64,000 nucleotides of DNA from Candidatus Bipolaricaulota bacterium. Lineage in GTDB: Bacteria > Bipolaricaulota > Bipolaricaulia > UBA7950 > UBA9294. The stretch is from positions 152,089 to 216,088 of the forward strand of contig JANQEA010000035.1 of assembly GCA_028278555.1 (NCBI GenBank). Reading direction: 5' to 3'. The number at the start of each line of letters is the position of its first letter. The stretch's first letter is position 1. Below, piece by piece: positions 3,602 through 51,416 of this stretch. The translations under genes were made by a program, and so were the position numbers. Under the pieces are notes generated by a model that was given only the letters and a program-made list of their open reading frames with translations, was not told the origin of the DNA and ran no database searches.

Positions 3602-3865
3602 TCGAGCCTCCCTTCGCTGAACCCAGACTGCCGCCACATGTTCTGACTCTCTCCCATACCAGATTACCACTGGAACTCGCGCAGTGTAGGTTACCATTGT
3701 GGAGTACGTCGATCAATGCTCCGCCAGCGAGCCAACTTCCCCCCACCTCTTCAGCCTTGCTTGAGAATCGCAATCCCATCTCCCACAGGCCGCAGCGGCC
3801 TCTGAACGGCGCGGCGTATCTCGTACTACTCGTTGATGCCGTGCAGACAGAATGCCGCCTCCAGT

Positions 3866-4309
3866 TCATCTCCTACGGAGCGGGTGCTTCCGCGCCTTCA
3901 GTGTCAGCAGACCGAACGCAATGAGCCCTGCTATTAAGGACGCGATGAATGAGAACTCCAGCTCCGGCCATGGTTTTGCTTCAAGCTGAAGACCACAGAA
4001 CGGAGCAATGAATCCGACGGCGATAGCAGCTGCAATGCCCAGGCTCAAACTCGCCATCGCACGTGTCAGAAGGTCACGCGCAAGCGATCTTCCGATTTGC
4101 AGGGCGGCCAGACCAACCAGTGCGCCAACAAGCAGATCCCAGCTGTCGTAGGTGCCAGGCGCATACTCGACTGCAAGTAACGCAGCTAGAAGGGTAGCTC
4201 CCGCCGCTCCACGGCCGACGGTAGTTTCTTGAGTCGCGTTTCTCACTAGTACTCCTCCTCTCGCGATCCTCTCCCACACGCGCATCGGCATCAATGATTT
4301 CTGAGCCAA
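3866..4309 (-). CDS. Small integral membrane protein (about 4 predicted TM helices), function unknown
   Basis: 147-aa ORF with four hydrophobic stretches (ATLLAALLAVEYA, WDLLVGALVGLAALQIG, LSLGIAAAIAVGFIAPFCGL, FSFIASLIAGLIAFGLLTL) and a basic C-terminal tail. It is on the same strand as, and upstream of, the Fic fusion gene, inside the low-GC stretch. No family was recognised. Confidence 0.5.
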   Translation of the reverse strand: MAQKSLMPMRVWERIARGGVLVRNATQETTVGRGAAGATLLAALLAVEYAPGTYDSWDLLVGALVGLAALQIGRSLARDLLTRAMASLSLGIAAAIAVGFIAPFCGLQLEAKPWPELEFSFIASLIAGLIAFGLLTLKARKHPLRRR

Positions 4310-21622: not shown

Positions 21623-21677
21623 TTGACAATCGAATTCCGGAGCGTATACTGCAGAGTACTTTGCGCTGCAAAGTACT
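21623..21677 (+). promoter_or_regulatory. Sigma70-type promoter plus perfect 10-bp inverted repeat (candidate operator) for the membrane-pair/HTH operon
   Basis: TTGACA (21623-21628), a 16-nt spacer and TATACT (21645-21650) are followed by AGTACTTTGC-gct-GCAAAGTACT (21655-21677), which overlaps the expected transcription start. ATG is at 21693. Confidence 0.45.
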
Positions 21678-21692
21678 TGACGGGAGAGAACT

Positions 21693-22352
21693 ATGAACCA
21701 ACTGAGTCTTCGAAACATCGAGCGCAAGAGCTGGCAAAGCACGATGGGCGGCGGGGTGATCGAGATCATGTTCGGGATCATGATGTTCGCCGGCGCGACG
21801 TCGTATCTCGTCTCCGATCTCGGCGCGCCATCCGCTGCGAGCACCGCTACGTTGATCGCCCTTCACGCCGTGGCGCTTCTATTGATGCTTTGGCTGCGGA
21901 AGCGATACGTCCTTCCGCGGGTCGGGCGGGCCGCCTTCTCGGCGAACCGAAAGCGGCGTCTCCATCGCATGCGGATCCTTCTGGGGATTTGCGTCGCGGT
22001 GACGGTCGCGCTCGTCGTGCTGACGGTCCTCGCAACGCGGACCGGGACCTCTCTCCTCGGGCCCGTTTCGGCCGCTCCCGTGGTTGCCGTCGTTGCCGTG
22101 ATCGTTCTCGTGCCGCTCGGCGCGCTCGCGATCTTCCTCGACTACCCTCGATTCCTCCTTCTTGGCGGATTGGTCGTCGGGGCGGAGGCGATCCTCGCGC
22201 TGCTCGACAAGTACGGTTCGCCGCCGTTCGACCGGACACTCGTCTTCGGCTCGATCGGCCTGATCAGTCTGATCCTCGGGTTGGTCATCTTCGCTCGCTT
22301 CCTCCGCCGCGTACCACGACCCGAACACGAGGTGATCGATCATGCCGGCTAG
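21693..22352 (+). CDS. Polytopic membrane protein, paralog 1 (unknown family)
   Basis: 219 aa with about 5-6 TM helices. Its N-terminal amphipathic segment SLRNIERKSWQS resembles LRELERRVWLRT of the next gene. Confidence 0.6.
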   Translation: MNQLSLRNIERKSWQSTMGGGVIEIMFGIMMFAGATSYLVSDLGAPSAASTATLIALHAVALLLMLWLRKRYVLPRVGRAAFSANRKRRLHRMRILLGICVAVTVALVVLTVLATRTGTSLLGPVSAAPVVAVVAVIVLVPLGALAIFLDYPRFLLLGGLVVGAEAILALLDKYGSPPFDRTLVFGSIGLISLILGLVIFARFLRRVPRPEHEVIDHAG

Positions 22353-29911: not shown

Positions 29912-30072
29912 ACGGCTCCGATTCGCACGGGGCGAGTATAGAGTCTTACCTTGCTGTGCCGCATTTCAGAAGTGTGAAGGGAGGCCATCGGCCTCCCTTC
30001 GCGGCACTCAGATTCGCAGCTCACCCACACGAGAACAGAGGCCATGCCACTGTTCTCGTCCGCGTCAGGGGG

Positions 30073-31572
30073 CTAGCCCCCTGACGCGAAGACGATGCGG
30101 AAGTCGGTCCTCCCGGGGAACGCCTTCAGCTCGAGGCCGTCGAACCGATCACTGTATGCCGCAACTGCGGCGAAGAAGTAGGGGATGATGACCGGCCCGC
30201 GCTCGATCAAGATCCGCTGGATCTCGGCGTATGCGGCGACACGCTCCGCTTCGTCGAGGGTCGTTCCGGCCGTTGCAGCGAGCCCGTCGAACTCGCTGTC
30301 GCAGAAGCGAGATTCATTCCACGACGCCGCGCACGTCAGCATCGAGTTCATGTAAAACTGCGGGTACGGACGCGATCCCCAGCCGGTGATCCCGAGCTCC
30401 TTGTCCATCCAGTGGTTCTCACCGTAGTAGATGGATTCTGGCTCGACGATCACGTTGACCGTGATCCCGGCTTCGGCCCACTGCTCCTTCAGGACGACCG
30501 CCAGGTCGGGTCGGCCACCGGTGTCCGGGGTGTAGAGATCGATCGTCAGACCGTCCGGGTATCCGGCGCTGGCAAGGAGGGCCTTGGCGGCGAGCGGATC
30601 CCGCGCCGGGATCGGGGTCGATTCATCGTAGTACTCGGCGTAGAGCGGGCCGACCGGGCTATCCCGCCCGACGGCGCCGAGCCCGAGCTGAACGATCTGG
30701 AAGATCGCCTCGCGATCGGTCGCGAGCTTCATCGCCTCGATAACGAGTGGATCGTTCCCCGGTGGAATGTCGGAGCGGAGCCGGACGAGGTCGAATCCGT
30801 TCGTCGGCACGTCGACGGCAACGATTCCCGGCTCACCTTGAAGCGTGAGGAAAAGGGCCGACGACATCCGCCACGCCATGTCGACCTGCCCGCCGCGGAG
30901 CGCGTCGACCGATGCAACCTGATCGCCGAAGAAGATGAACTGCAGGCCGTCGATTCGCGGGAGACCCTCAATGAAGTAGTCCGAATTCGCCCGCATCACG
31001 ATCCGATCTTCCGGACGGTAGTCCTCGACGATGAACGGACCGGTCCCGTTGAATGCCAAGAAGTCGGTCGTCCCTCGCTTAACGATCAACGCGTGGTTGT
31101 CGCTCAGATCGTAGAGGAAGAACGGATTCGGCTCCTTCAGCTGGAACGTCACTTCGTTCGGCCCGGTGACGTCGATCCTGTCGACGTTGGCGTAGACCGA
31201 CTCGGTTGCGAACCCATTCTCCGGATCGCGGAGCCGATCGAAGGTCCAGGCGACGTCGCCAGGGACGAGCGGGCTCCCGTCGTGGAATCGAATCCCTTCC
31301 GTCAGGATGAACGTGTACTCCGTTCCGTCCTCGCTGACGACCCAGGTTGCCGCCAATCGCGGAATGATTCGGCTTCCAGCATCGACATCGACCAGGTAGT
31401 CGTAGACCGCATTTGCTACCGCGACCTCCGCGTCCGAAGAGATCAGCGCCGGATCAACCTGAACGATCGGCTGCATCGCAACGCGGAAGACCGACTCAGC
31501 GAGAGCGGCGCCCTGAATGCTCAGCAGGAGTACCACCGCCAACAGAAAGACTCGGACGATTCCTCTACGCAT
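30073..31572 (-). CDS. ABC transporter substrate-binding protein, family 5 (peptide/nickel)
   Basis: The SD AAGGAGGA precedes ATG 31572. It has a signal peptide (VRVFLLAVVLLLSIQGAALA) and a length and pattern typical of SBP_bac_5. Confidence 0.9.
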   Translation of the reverse strand: MRRGIVRVFLLAVVLLLSIQGAALAESVFRVAMQPIVQVDPALISSDAEVAVANAVYDYLVDVDAGSRIIPRLAATWVVSEDGTEYTFILTEGIRFHDGSPLVPGDVAWTFDRLRDPENGFATESVYANVDRIDVTGPNEVTFQLKEPNPFFLYDLSDNHALIVKRGTTDFLAFNGTGPFIVEDYRPEDRIVMRANSDYFIEGLPRIDGLQFIFFGDQVASVDALRGGQVDMAWRMSSALFLTLQGEPGIVAVDVPTNGFDLVRLRSDIPPGNDPLVIEAMKLATDREAIFQIVQLGLGAVGRDSPVGPLYAEYYDESTPIPARDPLAAKALLASAGYPDGLTIDLYTPDTGGRPDLAVVLKEQWAEAGITVNVIVEPESIYYGENHWMDKELGITGWGSRPYPQFYMNSMLTCAASWNESRFCDSEFDGLAATAGTTLDEAERVAAYAEIQRILIERGPVIIPYFFAAVAAYSDRFDGLELKAFPGRTDFRIVFASGG

Positions 31573-35398: not shown

Positions 35399-35913
35399 CG
35401 GCTTCCTGTCTCCAGCAAATCGATATACGCTCCGCTCACGCGATCCGCGTTTTCGATGCCGAGTGACTCCAGCAGTCGATCGGCGGTTGCCGCTCCCTCC
35501 TCGGTCGATTCTCCCTCCTCGAGAACGACCTCGAGTTCCATGAACGTGCCGAGGCCCTCGACTTCATCGAGGTGGATTCGCGTTCGGCCGATACGATAGA
35601 GGAACCGACGTTTCACGACCACTCCCCGAACCTCGAGTACCGCCGTGAGCATGCTCAGGAACGTCTCGGGATCGGTCGACCAGACAAGGGCGTACTCCGA
35701 GACCTTTGCGGACGAGTCGTCCGGCCGCTCGTAGTAGATCAGCTCGCACGCGTCCGGCGCGAGAACGCGGAGCTTCAGCCGACCGCGTGGCACGACGAAG
35801 AACGTGTCGTGCTGATCGAGGTTCTCAACCGGAGTCTCAGTCAGCGCTTCGGCGCGTCGGCGGAAGGCGTCGACCTCCCTGACGCGCGCCTTGACCTCAA
35901 CGTTTCTCGCCAT
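35395..35913 (-). CDS. CYTH-domain protein (class IV adenylate cyclase / CyaB-like)
   Basis: The N-terminus MARNVEVKARV is an ExExK-type variant common in CyaB-like proteins. It is 172 aa, with the motif HLDEVEGLGTFMELEV. Confidence 0.8.
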   Translation of the reverse strand: MARNVEVKARVREVDAFRRRAEALTETPVENLDQHDTFFVVPRGRLKLRVLAPDACELIYYERPDDSSAKVSEYALVWSTDPETFLSMLTAVLEVRGVVVKRRFLYRIGRTRIHLDEVEGLGTFMELEVVLEEGESTEEGAATADRLLESLGIENADRVSGAYIDLLETGSR

Positions 35914-36676
35914 CGTTCTCCTCCCACACCTTCAGCTGTCGATCGAGCGCGGCTCGGAGACTCGGATCGATTGGTTCACGATCCGGGTCTTCGCGGCGAT
36001 GGAGCACTCGAGGCCGTTCCTCCCCATAGGGAGTGAAGCGGAGTGCAACGTGCTCCAGATAGAACCGCGCGTTCCCCGGAGGCACCGGGTCGGCGTACAA
36101 CCAATCGTCGACAAGCGGTGCGCCGAGATGCGCCATCGTCGCGCGGATCTGATGATACCGCCCGGTGTGCAGCCGGAGGAGGGCATGCGCTTCGTCCTCA
36201 CGATCGGGTGTTGGTGCAAGCGCCAGGATCTCGGTGACCGCGCGTTTCCCACCGCTTCGAACGACGATCGAACGGCCGCCGCGCGTCCGAAGGTGGACCA
36301 TGTGTACGCCGATCCACCGCTCAGGCCGATCCGACAGCGTTCCATTGACCCGCGCCAAGTAGACCTTCTCCCAGGTGCGATCTCGAAGGCTCTCGTTGTG
36401 GAATCGGATCGCGTCGGCCGACAGCGCAACCACAACGATCCCTCTCGTCACCCGGTCGAGCCGATGCGGAAGCTTCGGAGCGGCATCTCGCGCCGCCGCC
36501 GCCCGGACCCGCGCGATCAGCGAGACGCCCTTCGGATCGCTCGTCAGCTCGGTCGCCATACCGGCCGGCTTGATGACGGTGAGTTCGTGCGGACCCTCGA
36601 AGAGGATCGGCAGCCCGAGCGCGTCCCAACCGACGTTCTCTCCCCCGGCGCTGGCAACAGGCTCCACGCGTTCCAC
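35897..36676 (-). CDS. RluA-family pseudouridine synthase
   Basis: The catalytic motif HRLDRVTRGIVVVA (HRLDxxTSG-like) and downstream KxYxA (KVYLARV) are present. It overlaps the CYTH gene by 17 nt. Confidence 0.85.
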   Translation of the reverse strand: MERVEPVASAGGENVGWDALGLPILFEGPHELTVIKPAGMATELTSDPKGVSLIARVRAAAARDAAPKLPHRLDRVTRGIVVVALSADAIRFHNESLRDRTWEKVYLARVNGTLSDRPERWIGVHMVHLRTRGGRSIVVRSGGKRAVTEILALAPTPDREDEAHALLRLHTGRYHQIRATMAHLGAPLVDDWLYADPVPPGNARFYLEHVALRFTPYGEERPRVLHRREDPDREPIDPSLRAALDRQLKVWEENDGEKR

Positions 36677-37056
36677 CTCCGTCTGCCCGAGAGTCTATCG
36701 CCAGGGACCGAACGCCGAAATGGTTCGACACAAGAAAGCGAGCGCACGAGATCCCGGAGCTTCTCGCACGCTCGCCGGTGGGCGACCTTCGGTTCACGAC
36801 ATCATGGGTACTCTGCATCCTTGAAGGGCCGATGTGCGTGCCGTGATGCGGGTGTGTTCCCGCAAGCTGGCGAAAGGTGAGAGCCCGGGCCGTATTGTGC
36901 AAGGCCCAGGCTCTCGTGACTCCTCAGCGTAGGGCAACCGTAGCTCGAAGGCGTGAACCGACTGTGAACCGTCGGTGTCGTCCGTGTGTCCTGTCCATCA
37001 GCCGCGGCCCAGAGTTCGGAAAGGCTTATCCCAAGGACATTTCGCCGCTTAGGGTC

Positions 37057-37085
37057 TTGACAAGGCCTGGGGACCGGCCTATAGT
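37057..37085 (+). promoter_or_regulatory. Near-consensus sigma70 promoter
   Basis: TTGACA (37057-37062), an exactly 17-nt spacer and TATAGT (37080-37085). Confidence 0.55.
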
Positions 37086-37091
37086 GGCCGC

Positions 37092-37263
37092 GATATGCTA
37101 GAAGCAGGTAGTCCTCGGATGAGCCGGATGGGTTCGAGCGGCGTCTGCTTCTATTGGTTTTGGTACGAGTCCGGCTCCCGCGCTGCACGCTAGCCACGAC
37201 TAGCTAGCAAGAGCAGCGAAGGGGCCGGAAGACGACTGCGGGCAACCGCGGTCTTTTCTTTTT
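37092..37263 (+). ncRNA. Candidate ~170-nt structured RNA (stand-alone sRNA, or riboswitch/attenuator aptamer of the downstream ABC operon), class unknown
   Basis: It starts just downstream of the promoter. Hairpin 1 is 37099-37153 (AGAAGCAG/CTGCTTCT base). A long imperfect hairpin 2 spans 37170-37229 (TCCGGC..GCCGGA, CGCTGC/GCAGCG, GCTAG/CTAGC). The terminator hairpin follows. No protein-like ORF is present. Confidence 0.4.
37236..37263 (+). terminator. Intrinsic terminator inside the leader region
   Basis: CTGCGG-GCAA-CCGCGG (a 6-bp stem including one G-U pair, with a GNRA loop) is followed by TCTTTTCTTTTT. Confidence 0.55.
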
Positions 37264-37304
37264 GCGCGGAGGTGACAGGAAGCAGGAAGCGAGTCGGAAC
37301 AGGC

Positions 37305-37395
37305 CCGCCCGCGAGCGCGCTTGAGAAGCGTTCCCCTCGCGGGCGGACACGGATGGACGATCGGTGCAGATCGTCCGGGTTCGGTCCGAAGGACC
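37305..37395 (+). promoter_or_regulatory. Three further strong hairpins in the 5' UTR of the ABC substrate-binding gene
   Basis: CCGCCCGCGAG/CTCGCGGGCGG (37305-37346, 11 bp), GGACGATC/GATCGTCC (37355-37376, 8 bp) and GGTCC-GAA-GGACC (37383-37395), followed by the SD GGAAGGAG and GTG 37425. Confidence 0.4.
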
Positions 37396-37424
37396 ACCGC
37401 AAGGATAACGCGGAAGGAGACGAA

Positions 37425-38426
37425 GTGAAACGGATCATTGCGGTTGCACTACTAGGACTTGTTGTCCTCAACGTTGGATTCGCGGCGGCGGCAGCCCCGT
37501 TGAAGATCGGGATCTGCAAGATCGTCGAACATCCGGCGCTCGATGCGGTCGAACAGGGAGTCATCGACACCCTGACGGCCGCCGGATATGTCGAAGGAGT
37601 CGATGTCGAGTACCTGATCGCCAGCGCCCAGGGAGACTTCGGCACGGCGATCTCCATCGCGCAGAACTTTCTAGCCCAGAACGTCGATCTCGTCGTCGCC
37701 ATCGCCACACCGACGGCGCAGGCGGCGGTCGAGGTCTTCCGGGGCACGGACACACCGATCATCTACGGCGCCGTGACGGATCCGGTCGGGGCCGAGCTTG
37801 TGCCGAGCGCCACCGACCCGAGCGGGAACGAAAACGTGACCGGGGTCTCTGACATGATCCCCGTCGCGGCGCACCTCCGGCTCCTGAAGGAGCTGTCACC
37901 CGACATCGTCAGGATCGGAATCGTCTACAACCCGGGAGAAGCAAACTCGGCGATCCTAACGGAGATGGCCCTCGCTGCTGCGTCGGACGTCGGTGTCGAG
38001 ATCGTCACGGCGTCGGCCGATTCGACGGCGAACGTCCCGCTCGCCGCCCAGTCGCTGATCGGACGGGTCGACGCGTTCTACGTCACCACGGACAACACGG
38101 TCGTCTCGGCGATCGACTCCGTCCTGGCGGCGTCCGAGGAAGCAAAGGTTCCTTTCCTAATGGCCGATCCGACGAGCCTCGCGCAGGCGACGCTCGCCGC
38201 CGGCTTCGACTACTACGAGCATGGCTTGACCGTCGGGCAGATTGTCTTGGACGTCCTCTCCGGAGTAGGAACCGACGAGATCCCGGTGACGTACCAGCCG
38301 ACCGCCGAGGTTCACCTGAACATCGATGCGGCAGCACGGATCGGGTTCGTCTTCTCACAGGCGGTGCTCGATCAGGCCTCGGCGATCCTGTACGGCGGGA
38401 TCATCTGGGAGAAGAAACAGCCCTAG
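37425..38426 (+). CDS. ABC transporter substrate-binding protein (ABC_sub_bind / COG2984 family)
   Basis: GTG start after the SD GGAAGGAG. It has a signal peptide (IIAVALLGLVVLNVGFAAAA). The mature N-terminus PLKIGICKIVEHPALD is typical of PF04392-type proteins. Confidence 0.85.
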   Translation: MKRIIAVALLGLVVLNVGFAAAAAPLKIGICKIVEHPALDAVEQGVIDTLTAAGYVEGVDVEYLIASAQGDFGTAISIAQNFLAQNVDLVVAIATPTAQAAVEVFRGTDTPIIYGAVTDPVGAELVPSATDPSGNENVTGVSDMIPVAAHLRLLKELSPDIVRIGIVYNPGEANSAILTEMALAAASDVGVEIVTASADSTANVPLAAQSLIGRVDAFYVTTDNTVVSAIDSVLAASEEAKVPFLMADPTSLAQATLAAGFDYYEHGLTVGQIVLDVLSGVGTDEIPVTYQPTAEVHLNIDAAARIGFVFSQAVLDQASAILYGGIIWEKKQP

Positions 38427-38454
38427 TACCGGGGCAAGCAGCGACGGAGGAACG

Positions 38455-39354
38455 ATGGCTGTCCTGTGGATTCACGCGGTCGAACAAGGCCTCGCCTACG
38501 GCATCGCAGCGCTGGGTGTCTTTCTAACCTATCGCGTGCTGAAGTTCCCCGACCTGACGGTCGATGGGAGTTTCGTGACCGGGGCGGCCATCGCTTCCGT
38601 CCTCCTGATCCGATACGGCGTCGACCCGTTCACGGTCCTTCTGGTCGCGTTCGTCGCCGGAGGGATCGCCGGATTGATCACCGGGCTCCTCAACACGCGT
38701 TTGGGGATCACGAACCTCCTCGCCGGCGTGTTGACGATGATCATGCTCTACTCGATCAATCTGCGGATCATGGGACGTCCGAACCTGTCGCTTCTCCGAG
38801 TCTCGACGGCGACGCGGATCGTCGATGCCGCCTGGTCGCCGCTCGGCGCGTTCTCCGTCCTCGCGTTCATCGCGATCCTGACGATTGCGATCAAGTTCCT
38901 TCTCGACGCCTTCCTTCGCACGGAAGTCGGCTTCGCGCTCCGCGCGACCGGCGACAGCGAACGGATGATCACGGCGCAGGGGGTGAATACGAAGACGATG
39001 AAGATCCTTGGATTGGCGCTTTCCAACGGGCTTGTCGCGCTCTCCGGCGCGTTGGTCGCCCAGTACAGCGGCTTCGCCGACGTCGGGATGGGACTCGGGA
39101 CGATCGTCACCGGGCTCGCTGCAGTGATTATCGGTGGAACGCTGATCCGATCGAGTCGCGTCGGATGGATGACCGCCGGCGTTCTCCTCGGTTCGCTCGT
39201 CTACCGGATCGCCGTCATCCTCGCCCTCCGATACGGCTACGTCATCGGGTTCCAGGCGAGCGACTTGAAGCTGATCACGTCGCTTCTCGTCATCCTCGCC
39301 CTCGTTGTCCCGTACCTTCGGGAGCGGCGGATGCGGAAGGTGAGCGCATGCTGA
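38455..39354 (+). CDS. ABC transporter permease (COG4120 family)
   Basis: ATG 38455 follows the SD GGAGG. The N-terminus is QGLAYGIAALGVFLTYRVLKFPDLTVDGSF, with about 8 TM helices. Confidence 0.85.
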   Translation: MAVLWIHAVEQGLAYGIAALGVFLTYRVLKFPDLTVDGSFVTGAAIASVLLIRYGVDPFTVLLVAFVAGGIAGLITGLLNTRLGITNLLAGVLTMIMLYSINLRIMGRPNLSLLRVSTATRIVDAAWSPLGAFSVLAFIAILTIAIKFLLDAFLRTEVGFALRATGDSERMITAQGVNTKTMKILGLALSNGLVALSGALVAQYSGFADVGMGLGTIVTGLAAVIIGGTLIRSSRVGWMTAGVLLGSLVYRIAVILALRYGYVIGFQASDLKLITSLLVILALVVPYLRERRMRKVSAC

Positions 39355-40136
39355 GCCTCGAACGCCTGTCGAAGACTTTCCAGACCGCCGCCGATCGGGT
39401 CGTCGCGATTCGCGAGACCGACCTGCACCTGGAAGAGGGAGACTTCCTGACGATCATCGGATCGAACGGTGCCGGGAAGAGCACGCTCCTCAACCTGATC
39501 GCGGGAAGCTATCCGCCGACCTCCGGGCGGATCGTGCTAAGAGGCGTCGACTTGACCGGTATCCCGGCCCATCGGAGGGCACGGCGGATCGGTCGGATCG
39601 TTCAGGATCCGCTCGCCGGGACGGCCCCTTCGATGACGGTCGCAGAGAACCTTGCCCTGGCGATGAAACGGGGCCGCCGGTCCCTTCGGCTGGCCCTCCC
39701 TCGAAGGCTCCGCCGCCGCTTCCGCGAGCAACTCACCGCCCTGAACGTCGGGTTGGAGGATCGCCTCCGATGCCGGGTCGATCTCCTCTCCGGTGGGGAG
39801 CGCCAGGCCCTCGCCGTCCTGATGGCCACGCTCGTCCCGCCCGAAGTTCTGCTCCTCGACGAGCACACCGCAGCGCTCGATCCGAGCAACGCTGCGATGA
39901 TCGTCCGACTGACGCGATCGTTCGTCGAACGTCTCAATCTGACGACCCTGATGGTCACCCACAACATGGAGCAGGCGATCGACGTCGGAACGCGTCTGAT
40001 CATGATGCACAAGGGGGAGATCATCGAGGAGCTCCACGGGGTGGAGAAGAGCCAGGCGACCGTTCCACAGCTCGTCGACCTCTTCTCGCAGCACCACGTC
40101 GTCGACGACGAGCTTCTCCTCGAACGGGTCGTCTAG
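39348..40136 (+). CDS. ABC transporter ATP-binding protein (COG1101 family)
   Basis: Walker A GSNGAGKST, signature LSGGERQA and Walker B LLLDEHTAALD. The ATG overlaps the permease stop (ATGCTGA). Confidence 0.9.
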   Translation: MLSLERLSKTFQTAADRVVAIRETDLHLEEGDFLTIIGSNGAGKSTLLNLIAGSYPPTSGRIVLRGVDLTGIPAHRRARRIGRIVQDPLAGTAPSMTVAENLALAMKRGRRSLRLALPRRLRRRFREQLTALNVGLEDRLRCRVDLLSGGERQALAVLMATLVPPEVLLLDEHTAALDPSNAAMIVRLTRSFVERLNLTTLMVTHNMEQAIDVGTRLIMMHKGEIIEELHGVEKSQATVPQLVDLFSQHHVVDDELLLERVV

Positions 40137-50384: not shown

Positions 50385-50396
50385 GGAGGGATCCCG

Positions 50397-51416
50397 ATGA
50401 AACACCCTCACAGGAGAAGGCTCTACTTCGGATTGGCGACCGTTGTGGTGGCAGCCGGTCTGGCGATCGGCCTGGCACAGAGCCAGCCAGATTCCACGAC
50501 CGAACCGCACGTCGAGATCGTCAACGGACGTGAGGTCTACGTTACGGAGTCCGGGTTCCGGTACATCGTCCATCCATCGGAAATCCTGAGCGGCGGCCCG
50601 CCGATGGACGGCATCCCGTCGATCGACCGGCCAGTCTACGTTTCGGTCGAAGAGGCCGACGCGTGGATCGAGGACAACGAACTCGTCCTCGCCCTGATCC
50701 ACGGCGACGTCGTTCGCGTCTATCCGCTCCAAATCCTCGTCTGGCACGAGATTGTCAATGACACGATCGGCGGCGATCCGATCCTCGTCACCTACTGCCC
50801 CCTCTGCGGATCCGGGATCGCCTACGAGCGACGGATCGAGGGGGTCGAGGTCGAGTTCGGGACCTCGGGGAAGCTGTACAACTCGAATCTCGTGATGTAC
50901 GACCGGCGGACCGAGACCTACTGGAGTCAGATCGACGGCCTCGCGATCGTCGGCGAGCTAACCGGGATGGAGCTCGTGCCGATCTCGATCGACACGGTCG
51001 TCTGGCGTGACTGGAAGGTCGCGTATCCTAAGTCCGAGGTCCTCAGCCAGGAGACTGGCTTCAGCCGGCCGTACGGACGCGATCCGTACGGGAGCTACTA
51101 CGAGGACAGCTTCATCTGGTTCCCGGTCGCCGGGCGTGACGATCGGATTCACCCGAAGACGGTCATCTTCGGGGTCGAGGTCGATGGTGTCTACGCCGCC
51201 TACCGCGAGTCCGACCTGATCGAGCTTGGATCGATCGAGGACGTGGTCAACGGGATCCCGATCCGGATCGTCCGCGATCCGGCTGGGGTCGTCACGATCA
51301 CCGATCTGAGCACCGGCGAGGCAATCGTCAAGGAACGCGACTTCTGGTTCGCCTGGTACGCGTTCCACCCGGAGACGCTCCTCTACCTGCCTGAGGCTGA
51401 GTCGGACGGCGAGTAG
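50397..51416 (+). CDS. DUF3179-domain secreted protein
   Basis: GGPPMDGIPSIDRP, VYPLQILVWHEIVND and VTYCPLCGSG are characteristic DUF3179 motifs. It has a signal/anchor N-terminus. Confidence 0.8.
   Translation: MKHPHRRRLYFGLATVVVAAGLAIGLAQSQPDSTTEPHVEIVNGREVYVTESGFRYIVHPSEILSGGPPMDGIPSIDRPVYVSVEEADAWIEDNELVLALIHGDVVRVYPLQILVWHEIVNDTIGGDPILVTYCPLCGSGIAYERRIEGVEVEFGTSGKLYNSNLVMYDRRTETYWSQIDGLAIVGELTGMELVPISIDTVVWRDWKVAYPKSEVLSQETGFSRPYGRDPYGSYYEDSFIWFPVAGRDDRIHPKTVIFGVEVDGVYAAYRESDLIELGSIEDVVNGIPIRIVRDPAGVVTITDLSTGEAIVKERDFWFAWYAFHPETLLYLPEAESDGE

Follow-up and report, generated by a model that had tools for sequence, protein, structure and literature searches.

A putative leader-peptide attenuator with a mixed aromatic codon cluster precedes an ABC importer operon in Candidatus Bipolaricaulota

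The trpL, pheL and hisL leaders of Escherichia coli each combine a small open reading frame (sORF) carrying a cluster of cognate codons with a terminator located before the first structural gene. The regulatory codons lie just before the next hairpin, the stop codon falls at or in the 5' arm of that hairpin, and the his leader presents a default fold of three hairpins. In Corynebacterium glutamicum, as summarised in PMC11802643, the leader peptide of aroR-aroF contains Phe-Tyr-Phe and stalling raises downstream expression (Neshat et al. 2014). Leaderless leader peptides have been reported in S. lividans for trpL1, leuL and ilvL, and for metL before the metNIQ importer (PMC8079986), and the mycobacterial leaderless sORFs encoding poly-Cys peptides act on translation by masking the Shine-Dalgarno (SD) sequence (bioRxiv 10.1101/834739). 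In Firmicutes, TrpXYZ is a Trp importer induced by starvation via a T-box (PMC9382623). Here we describe a structured leader upstream of a three-gene ATP-binding cassette (ABC) operon of Candidatus Bipolaricaulota (Acetothermia/OP1), an uncultured, deep-branching phylum. The leader lies in a stretch of 64 kb from contig JANQEA010000035.1, which was analysed as a whole and is referred to below as the window.

The Bipolaricaulota leader shares with the E. coli systems the sORF with its codon cluster, the terminator before the first structural gene and the placement of regulatory codons and stop codon around the next hairpin; it also shares the three-hairpin default fold of the his leader. Unlike the E. 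coli systems, its open reading frame (ORF) lacks an SD sequence, would begin at the 5' end or close to it, mixes Phe, Tyr and Trp codons and would control an importer rather than biosynthesis, and no mutually exclusive antiterminator pairing is detectable. The mixed aromatic residues are reminiscent of AroR; in contrast to this actinobacterial leader of a DAHP synthase gene, the Bipolaricaulota cluster holds 4-6 aromatic residues, always includes Trp and precedes an ABC importer. Actinobacterial leaderless leaders present a start codon at the 5' end, hairpins and sometimes a U stretch, a succession that the Bipolaricaulota leader may share, and metNIQ constitutes a precedent for an importer as the target. 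They differ from the present leader in belonging to another phylum, and the 5' end of the Bipolaricaulota leader is deduced from promoter spacing; the SD masking of the poly-Cys sORFs is not seen here. Finally, the transporter belongs to the same family as T-box-controlled TrpXYZ (PF04392, a relative of 3LFT), and in both cases tRNA charging would be linked to read-through of a leader. Whereas the T-box binds uncharged tRNA directly, the Bipolaricaulota leader has no T-box features or Rfam match, and its proposed sensor is a translating ribosome.

We consider it quite probable that the element acts in cis on the operon as a translated regulatory leader. With much less assurance, we lean towards the more complete reading of a leaderless or nearly leaderless, ribosome-mediated attenuator of an aromatic amino-acid ABC importer, including the entire chain of events by which starvation would raise read-through. 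The components of the leader are as follows.

37057-37085, + strand: promoter, TTGACA (37057-37062), 17-nt spacer and TATAGT (37080-37085), with 11/12 consensus matches.
37095-37193, + strand: leader ORF of 32 codons plus TAG (37191-37193), encoding the peptide MLEAGSPRMSRMGSSGVCFYWFWYESGSRAAR; its frame is conserved in relatives.
37149-37166, + strand: run of aromatic codons TTC TAT TGG TTT TGG TAC (F19-Y24, FYWFWY), the candidate site for sensing charged tRNA.
37099-37153, + strand: hairpin H1, within the ORF (helices 1-3; double changes at 16/16 pairs).
37170-37229, + strand: hairpin H2 (helices 4-6; double changes at 20/21 pairs).
37234-37263, + strand: intrinsic terminator T (helix 7), GACUGCGG-GCAA-CCGCGGUC with its stem at 37234-37253, followed by UUUUCUUUUU.

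The promoter, which the first-pass annotation of this DNA had already recognised, is the sole promoter match in 36000-38000 and ranks first among the four strong sites of the window. The ATG of the leader ORF is located 9 nt past the -10 box with no SD sequence between them, unlike the other strong promoters of the window, which stand before SD-led genes. Judging from this promoter spacing alone, the leader mRNA is likely leaderless or carries a 5' untranslated region (UTR) of at most about 3 nt. The region had been described as gene-free, and AUUGGUUUUGGUACGAG as a single-stranded linker of a non-coding RNA. The U/G-rich linker between H1 and H2 is indeed present, but it corresponds to the codon run Y-W-F-W-Y-E of the conserved 32-codon ORF. 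The first-pass annotation had itself named a conserved small protein gene as the finding that would speak against a non-coding RNA, and such a gene is what the region contains. Translation of the 64 kb in six frames gives 115,014 windows of six residues, of which FYWFWY alone has 6/6 aromatics, and the pattern TGGTWYTGGTWY occurs once in the window where 0 occurrences are expected. We presume that charged tRNA-Phe, -Tyr and -Trp are sensed at this run.

The frame and the codon cluster are conserved across related loci. Loci with relatives of the binding protein encoded by the first gene of the operon were gathered from genome and metagenome collections, yielding 92 orthologous loci; those nearest to the gene of the window all come from metagenome-assembled genomes (MAGs) of Bipolaricaulota. 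The layout of promoter, ATG, sORF and aromatic cluster was found upstream of the orthologous binding-protein gene in 76/92 Bipolaricaulota loci. Among the remaining 16, most are truncated too near the gene to be judged, and three or four more distant ones miss the search pattern. The same leader was not found before the proteobacterial homologues (Marinobacter, Chelativorans), where aromatic clusters are incidental and without the promoter/terminator layout. Nearly all homologous loci present the promoter TTGACA-17-TATAGT or TATGAT, and the distance from the -10 box to the ATG is 8-9 nt in most of the 76 loci, again with no SD sequence between. We obtained 65 distinct leaders of 145-178 nt, whose ORFs span 23-34 codons with the aromatic cluster near the end. 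The motif UGG-NNN-UGG keeps the frame of the 5' AUG in 49/49 leaders having it (offsets of 54/57/60/63/66 nt), and the conserved UGG is likewise in frame in the remaining 16. All insertions and deletions between the AUG and the motif are multiples of three, and stops number 0 in the frame of the leader ORFs but 115 and 37 in the two alternative frames. The AUG does not vary across an alignment of 54 leaders, and a few compact relatives begin with GUG or GUGAUG.

Phe, Tyr and Trp are present in every one of the 65 distinct peptides, the best window of six residues containing 4-6 aromatics. Synonymous codons are mixed (116 UUC and 73 UUU; 69 UAU and 39 UAC), and the cluster varies by permutation of the aromatic residues (FYWFWY, FFWYW, WYWF, FYWYWF, YYYWF, WYFYF). 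The N-terminus and the tail of the peptide are free to vary across relatives. The permutation of aromatic residues within an otherwise variable peptide indicates that these are regulatory codons rather than a nucleotide motif or part of a folded small protein.

The 176-nt RNA (37090-37265) is predicted to fold at -82.9 kcal/mol (z = -4.1 relative to shuffled sequences), and both hairpins that the first-pass annotation had drawn upstream of the terminator are present. Leaders folded one at a time each yield the same succession of H1, an unpaired aromatic linker, H2 and T. A covariance model was built from the leaders of the window's clade and used to search the window and flanks of only 1.5-4 kb in the relatives, where it produced one match per locus in 70 loci and one match in the window, at 37092-37263. 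In the model-based alignment, 89.2% of the cells are paired; sliding the partners by 1-3 columns lowers this to 40-52%. Double-sided changes were observed at 45/49 pairs and cover all three hairpins. The covariation score is 0.42, compared to about 0.09 with slid partners and 0.185 with shuffles; the alignment was fitted to the model and favours the structure, but the margin is still large and the single-sequence folds concur. The terminator helix is 95% paired with 9/12 pairs covarying. When all 54 leaders were aligned with MAFFT only, RNAalifold recovered the terminator alone; the covariance-model alignment was needed for the remaining structure.

A conserved RNA of this type could also be an untranslated sensor, i.e., a riboswitch, a T-box-like element or a protein-binding attenuator whose U/G-rich linker is the site of the ligand or protein. 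Such a sensor would be consistent with three covarying hairpins and a conserved single-stranded UGGUAUUGG beside the terminator, and T-boxes do govern Firmicute relatives of the transporter (PMC9382623). Against it stand the AUG that is invariant across the 54 aligned leaders, the three-nucleotide periodicity of insertions and deletions upstream of the motif, and a motif that permutes aromatic codons instead of keeping its nucleotide sequence. The search against Rfam, which had been suggested along with the idea of a riboswitch, matched no riboswitch class or other family in the region: at the gathering threshold, the whole window yielded two tRNAs only, both outside the leader region, and 36600-37500 yielded at E <= 10 only chance-level matches to microRNA and long non-coding RNA families (E 5-10) and no T-box. 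Given the lack of an Rfam match and the conserved ORF, the proposal of a metabolite aptamer is not supported, and we regard an untranslated sensor as extremely improbable.

The relation of the leader to the transporter is most apparent in 11 compact leaders, in which the SD sequence and start codon of the transporter come 0-15 nt after the U tract. The window's clade has gained 140-240 nt of structured RNA that separate the terminator from the start codon. The compact leaders leave no space for a second promoter, and transcription of the operon must therefore cross the terminator in these loci. Since the ribosome-binding site (RBS) of the transporter directly follows the terminator there, the element is better described as a cis leader than as a free small RNA (sRNA). 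This agrees with the proposal, made in the first-pass annotation alongside that of an independent sRNA, of an attenuator controlling read-through into the transporter, a layout now seen in 76/92 orthologous loci and with the terminator abutting the transporter's SD sequence in compact relatives. An independent small gene or dual-function sRNA, whose 32-residue peptide or ~170-nt RNA would act in trans, would likewise have its own strong promoter and terminator, a conserved ORF and a strongly structured, conserved RNA. We find this very unlikely: only the aromatic cluster of the peptide is conserved while its N-terminus, tail and length (23-34 residues) vary, H1 closes against or over the start codon, the transporter of compact relatives has no other promoter, and the element always stands directly upstream of the same transporter, with a single match per locus in the flanks searched.

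The geometry of codons, stop and hairpins was measured in 55 leaders with three clean domains. The closing helix of H1, AGAAGCAG:CUGCUUCU (AGAAGC:GCUUCU), pairs codons 2-4 with the first aromatic codons, immediately next to the start codon; in many relatives it takes in the AUG itself. In the window, the 5' arm of H2 starts 4 nt past the last aromatic codon (3 unpaired nt) and contains the stop codon TAG, and the 3' end of H2 lies 4 nt from the terminator stem. In nearly all leaders, the first paired base of H2 is found 4-7 nt past the last aromatic codon; the first base of the stop codon lies at -3 to +29 (median +19) from this position, and the gap between H2 and the terminator is 0 nt in 38/55. 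With these distances, a ribosome on an aromatic codon would reach only the foot of H2, and one at the stop codon would cover its 5' arm. The Trp codons, stop codon and region 2 of the trp leader stand in the same relation.

From the promoter, the ORF and the hairpins we infer a transcription start, translation, stalling, a direction of the response and an effect of H2 on termination, which may be connected in the following way. The strong promoter would start an RNA with its AUG within about three nt of the 5' end. A ribosome could load while the RNA is nascent but not afterwards, as H1 subsequently closes beside the start codon and, in many relatives, over it. The ribosome would then arrive at the six aromatic codons directly before H2. 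When charged tRNA-Phe, -Tyr or -Trp is short, the ribosome would stall there and H2 would be free to fold; when the supply is good, it would run to the stop codon and occupy the 5' arm of H2, since the stop is located inside that arm (at its foot in compact relatives). The state of H2, which abuts the terminator, would set the fraction of polymerases passing into the transporter genes. By analogy with trpL/pheL/aroR and with the T-box of TrpXYZ, starvation should raise read-through.

The function of the downstream genes is consistent with such a response. The neighbouring genes are listed below.

35897-36676, minus strand: pseudouridine synthase gene, PF00849, the divergent neighbour on the left.
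37425-38426, + strand: binding protein, PF04392, with a GTG start at 37425 (profile E 1.8e-69).
38455-39354, + strand: permease, PF02653 (BPD_transp_2; profile E 4.1e-30).
39348-40136, + strand: ABC ATPase, PF00005 (profile E 9e-28).

Synteny of the pseudouridine synthase gene is not kept among the relatives. The regulated operon spans 37425-40136 (+), and its three domains (PF04392, PF02653 and PF00005) fit an importer of the TrpXYZ / CD0873 type. The first gene is the substrate-binding gene that the first-pass annotation had expected behind an SD sequence and a GTG. The nearest solved relatives of its product are 3LKV (2e-62), 6HNI (1.8e-45) and 3LFT (6.4e-41), which hold Phe, Tyr and Trp, respectively (PMC6816091). 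These matches support a family-level assignment as an importer of aromatic amino acids, and the operon is probably devoted to starvation-induced uptake of aromatic amino acids. The selectivity of the solved relatives, of the Phe, Tyr or Trp type, has been associated with pairs of residues: Ala246/Tyr262 in VC_1101, Glu263/Tyr279 in CD0873 and Ala268/Gln284 in SP1069.

Several results weigh against the proposed attenuator. The corresponding pair in the window is Asp248/Tyr263, which matches none of the three solved relatives. Asp/Tyr is invariant in 60/60 leader-linked Bipolaricaulota orthologues and is also found in 70/72 mostly proteobacterial homologues, which are without the leader. Because this pair is unlike all three solved types, the assignment holds at the level of the family rather than of one substrate. 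More importantly, the step from the state of H2 to termination is the weak link of the mechanism. An antiterminator that excludes the terminator is a defining feature of classical attenuators, and none was found. We considered 13 alternative pairs of arms in 55 leaders and obtained duplex z-scores of about 0 (B:C, D:E, A:E, C:E, A:F, D:F and others), the shuffled control preserving base composition and being blind to pairing that arises from purine-rich versus pyrimidine-rich arms alone. Pairs of the his type (B:C and D:E) and those using the 5' arm of H1 freed by the ribosome also gave z-scores of about 0. The native pairs, by comparison, yielded median z-scores of -2.5 for H1, -4.8 for H2 and -5.8 for T. 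An alternative pairing between CCCGCG and the 5' arm of the terminator had been suggested by the first-pass annotation: this duplex exists, with 6 bp including one G-U, but it is no better than shuffles (C:E median z = +0.5, 55 homologues). The terminator formed with a probability of 0.96-1.0 under simulated ribosome footprints in four leaders. Sequestration of its 5' arm before the 3' arm is made was nearly the same for a free RNA (0.51), a stalled ribosome (0.58) and a ribosome at the stop (0.57), and the best duplex partner of this arm had no consistent location. A scan of the structural alignment for stacked helices returned only a weak, G-U-rich UGGUU:GACUG without covariation. Moreover, whether it stalls or reaches the stop codon, the ribosome stays 27 nt or more away from the terminator stem, a distance that makes direct occlusion of the terminator unlikely. 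Together, these null pairing tests and this distance leave both base-pair competition and direct occlusion unsupported.

One way to preserve attenuation would be a non-competitive mechanism, in which the ribosome-gated H2 has no nucleotides in common with the terminator, though it directly abuts it, and sets termination by its folded or unfolded state. H2 could act on the polymerase or on its RNA exit channel, serve as a pause element, or exert steric or coaxial effects. We consider this mechanism doubtful. The sign of the response could also be reversed, as in tna, where induction serves catabolic use. The ribosome at the stop would then unfold H2 and decrease termination, and the importer would be on when aromatics are plentiful and off when the ribosome stalls or the leader is not translated. 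The stalled and unstalled RNAs differ only in whether H2 is folded or its 5' arm is occupied, which accommodates this reverse logic; and as the searches revealed an antiterminator for neither direction, the sign of regulation does not follow from the sequence by itself. Nevertheless, relatives of the transporter are starvation-induced (T-box TrpXYZ, PMC9382623), the characterised aromatic leader peptides all raise expression on stalling as summarised in PMC11802643, and the freed 3' arm of H2 has no complementarity to the arms of the terminator (D:E z = -0.15, D:F z = +0.2). A reverse response therefore appears improbable.

The terminator stands where the first-pass annotation had placed it and was detected in 62/65 distinct leaders, three other loci failing the detection rule. 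Under strict criteria, requiring a perfect stem of 7 bp or more and at least 6 T in 8, no second hairpin-plus-U-tract site appears on the two strands of the 64 kb. Such an absence of other terminators argues for selection toward a regulatory job. As a separate observation, most genes of the window seem to end without a canonical intrinsic terminator.

Additional elements flank the leader on both sides.

36873-37006, + strand: upstream element shared by the nearest clade, a hairpin with a 13-bp stem, GAGAGCCCGGGCC...GGCCCAGGCUCUC (36879-36915), followed by CTCGTGACTCCTCAGCGT.
37268-37275, + strand: SD-like GGAGGTGA, a near-perfect complement of the anti-SD sequence with no usable start codon, 4 nt past the U tract.
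37305-37346, + strand: H4, a perfect 11-bp stem (37305-37315/37336-37346) whose base helix is conserved with two covarying pairs.
37355-37376, + strand: H5, an 8-bp stem with compensatory changes seen by eye.
37383-37395, + strand: H6, a 5-bp stem with compensatory changes seen by eye.
37400-37427, + strand: start region of the binding protein, with a conserved CAAGGATA (37400-37407), the SD sequence GGAAGGAG (37412-37419) and GTG at 37425.

Some of these elements relate to another explanation, in which the terminator is constitutive and partial and a stalled ribosome exerts a post-transcriptional effect, by stabilising the read-through mRNA from its 5' side (erm-like) or by changing access to the RBS of the transporter (as in the mycobacterial poly-Cys leaders). 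A GGAGG-type sequence is found mostly 2-7 nt past the U tract in 53/54 long leaders (loci L001-L017 and L082-L145), with no start codon after it. This startless SD-like sequence may resemble stabiliser SD elements. In the window, GGAGGTGA is a candidate stabiliser, standby site or relic. The placement of the SD-like sequence is strictly either/or between long and compact leaders: in all 11 compact leaders, the leader ORF instead carries GGAGGUGAU at codon 9-10, and it is the transporter's own SD that comes right after the terminator. A possible helix between ACCGCAAGGAU (37396-37406) and AUCAUUGCGGU (37434-37444) encloses the SD sequence and GTG of the transporter. Another clade presents GCCGAAAG / CUUUCGGC at the same places, suggesting covariation of this RBS-enclosing helix, which competes with a local CCGC...GCGG hairpin. 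On the basis of these sequences, the helix may be an element of translational control. A post-transcriptional role would be consistent with the startless SD-like sequences, with this helix and its counterpart in the other clade, and with our failure to detect a structural link between the position of the ribosome and the terminator; translational attenuation by leaderless sORFs is also documented (bioRxiv 10.1101/834739). However, no pairing between the aromatic tract and the SD region of the transporter is conserved, and a canonical terminator in all 62 scorable leaders, when none is otherwise found in the 64 kb, argues for a regulated step. We consider a purely post-transcriptional role rather improbable and favour, slightly, the attenuator set out above.

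The three stems that the first-pass annotation had noted before the transporter are thus present. They form an extension of the 5' UTR (37305-37395) that is found only in the long-leader clade, and the exchanges at the base of H4 are C-G/U-A and G-C/A-U. H4 was also considered as a dispersed repeat and rejected, its own two arms being the sole matches in the window. In some relatives, an H4-type hairpin (GGCCCGTCCGC...GCGGACGGGC) occurs as two or three tandem copies (L016 at ~3790-3960, L027 and L015). A second ORF after the terminator, with an in-frame GTG at 37272, was rejected as well, as stops are scattered over all frames in relatives; no conserved ORF between the terminator and the transporter was found in these relatives.

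Upstream of the promoter, 36873-37006 is the only conserved part. It presents 74-82% identity within the nearest clade only, at a variable distance from the promoter, with one compensatory change in the stem. Its hairpin has no U tract, is unique in the window and is kept although the upstream gene differs. Elsewhere in the window, at 21623-21700 (+), a strong promoter-like TTGACA-16-TATACT stands before a perfect 11-bp hairpin (GCAGAGTACTTTGCGCTGCAAAGTACT), after which an SD-led gene begins; this hairpin may be an operator or a leader structure. The first-pass annotation had regarded the region of the leader as by far the longest non-coding stretch, which we could not confirm with a crude ORF map that is unreliable in GC-rich DNA. 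On this map, gaps without a long ORF were also seen at 50385-50957 (~570 nt) and 29912-30411 (~500 nt), and Rfam matched nothing in either of them at the gathering threshold.

These results call for caution, since an apparent textbook sRNA, with its promoter, hairpins and terminator, can conceal a tiny regulatory ORF. The 65 natural variants and the covariance model constitute a resource on a leader with no findable switch between terminator and antiterminator. If regulation is confirmed, signalling from the ribosome to the terminator would require a new explanation. A poorly characterised transporter also gains a functional assignment from sequence only. Leader-peptide attenuation, described so far mainly in Proteobacteria and Actinobacteria, would be extended to Bipolaricaulota and to an amino-acid importer.

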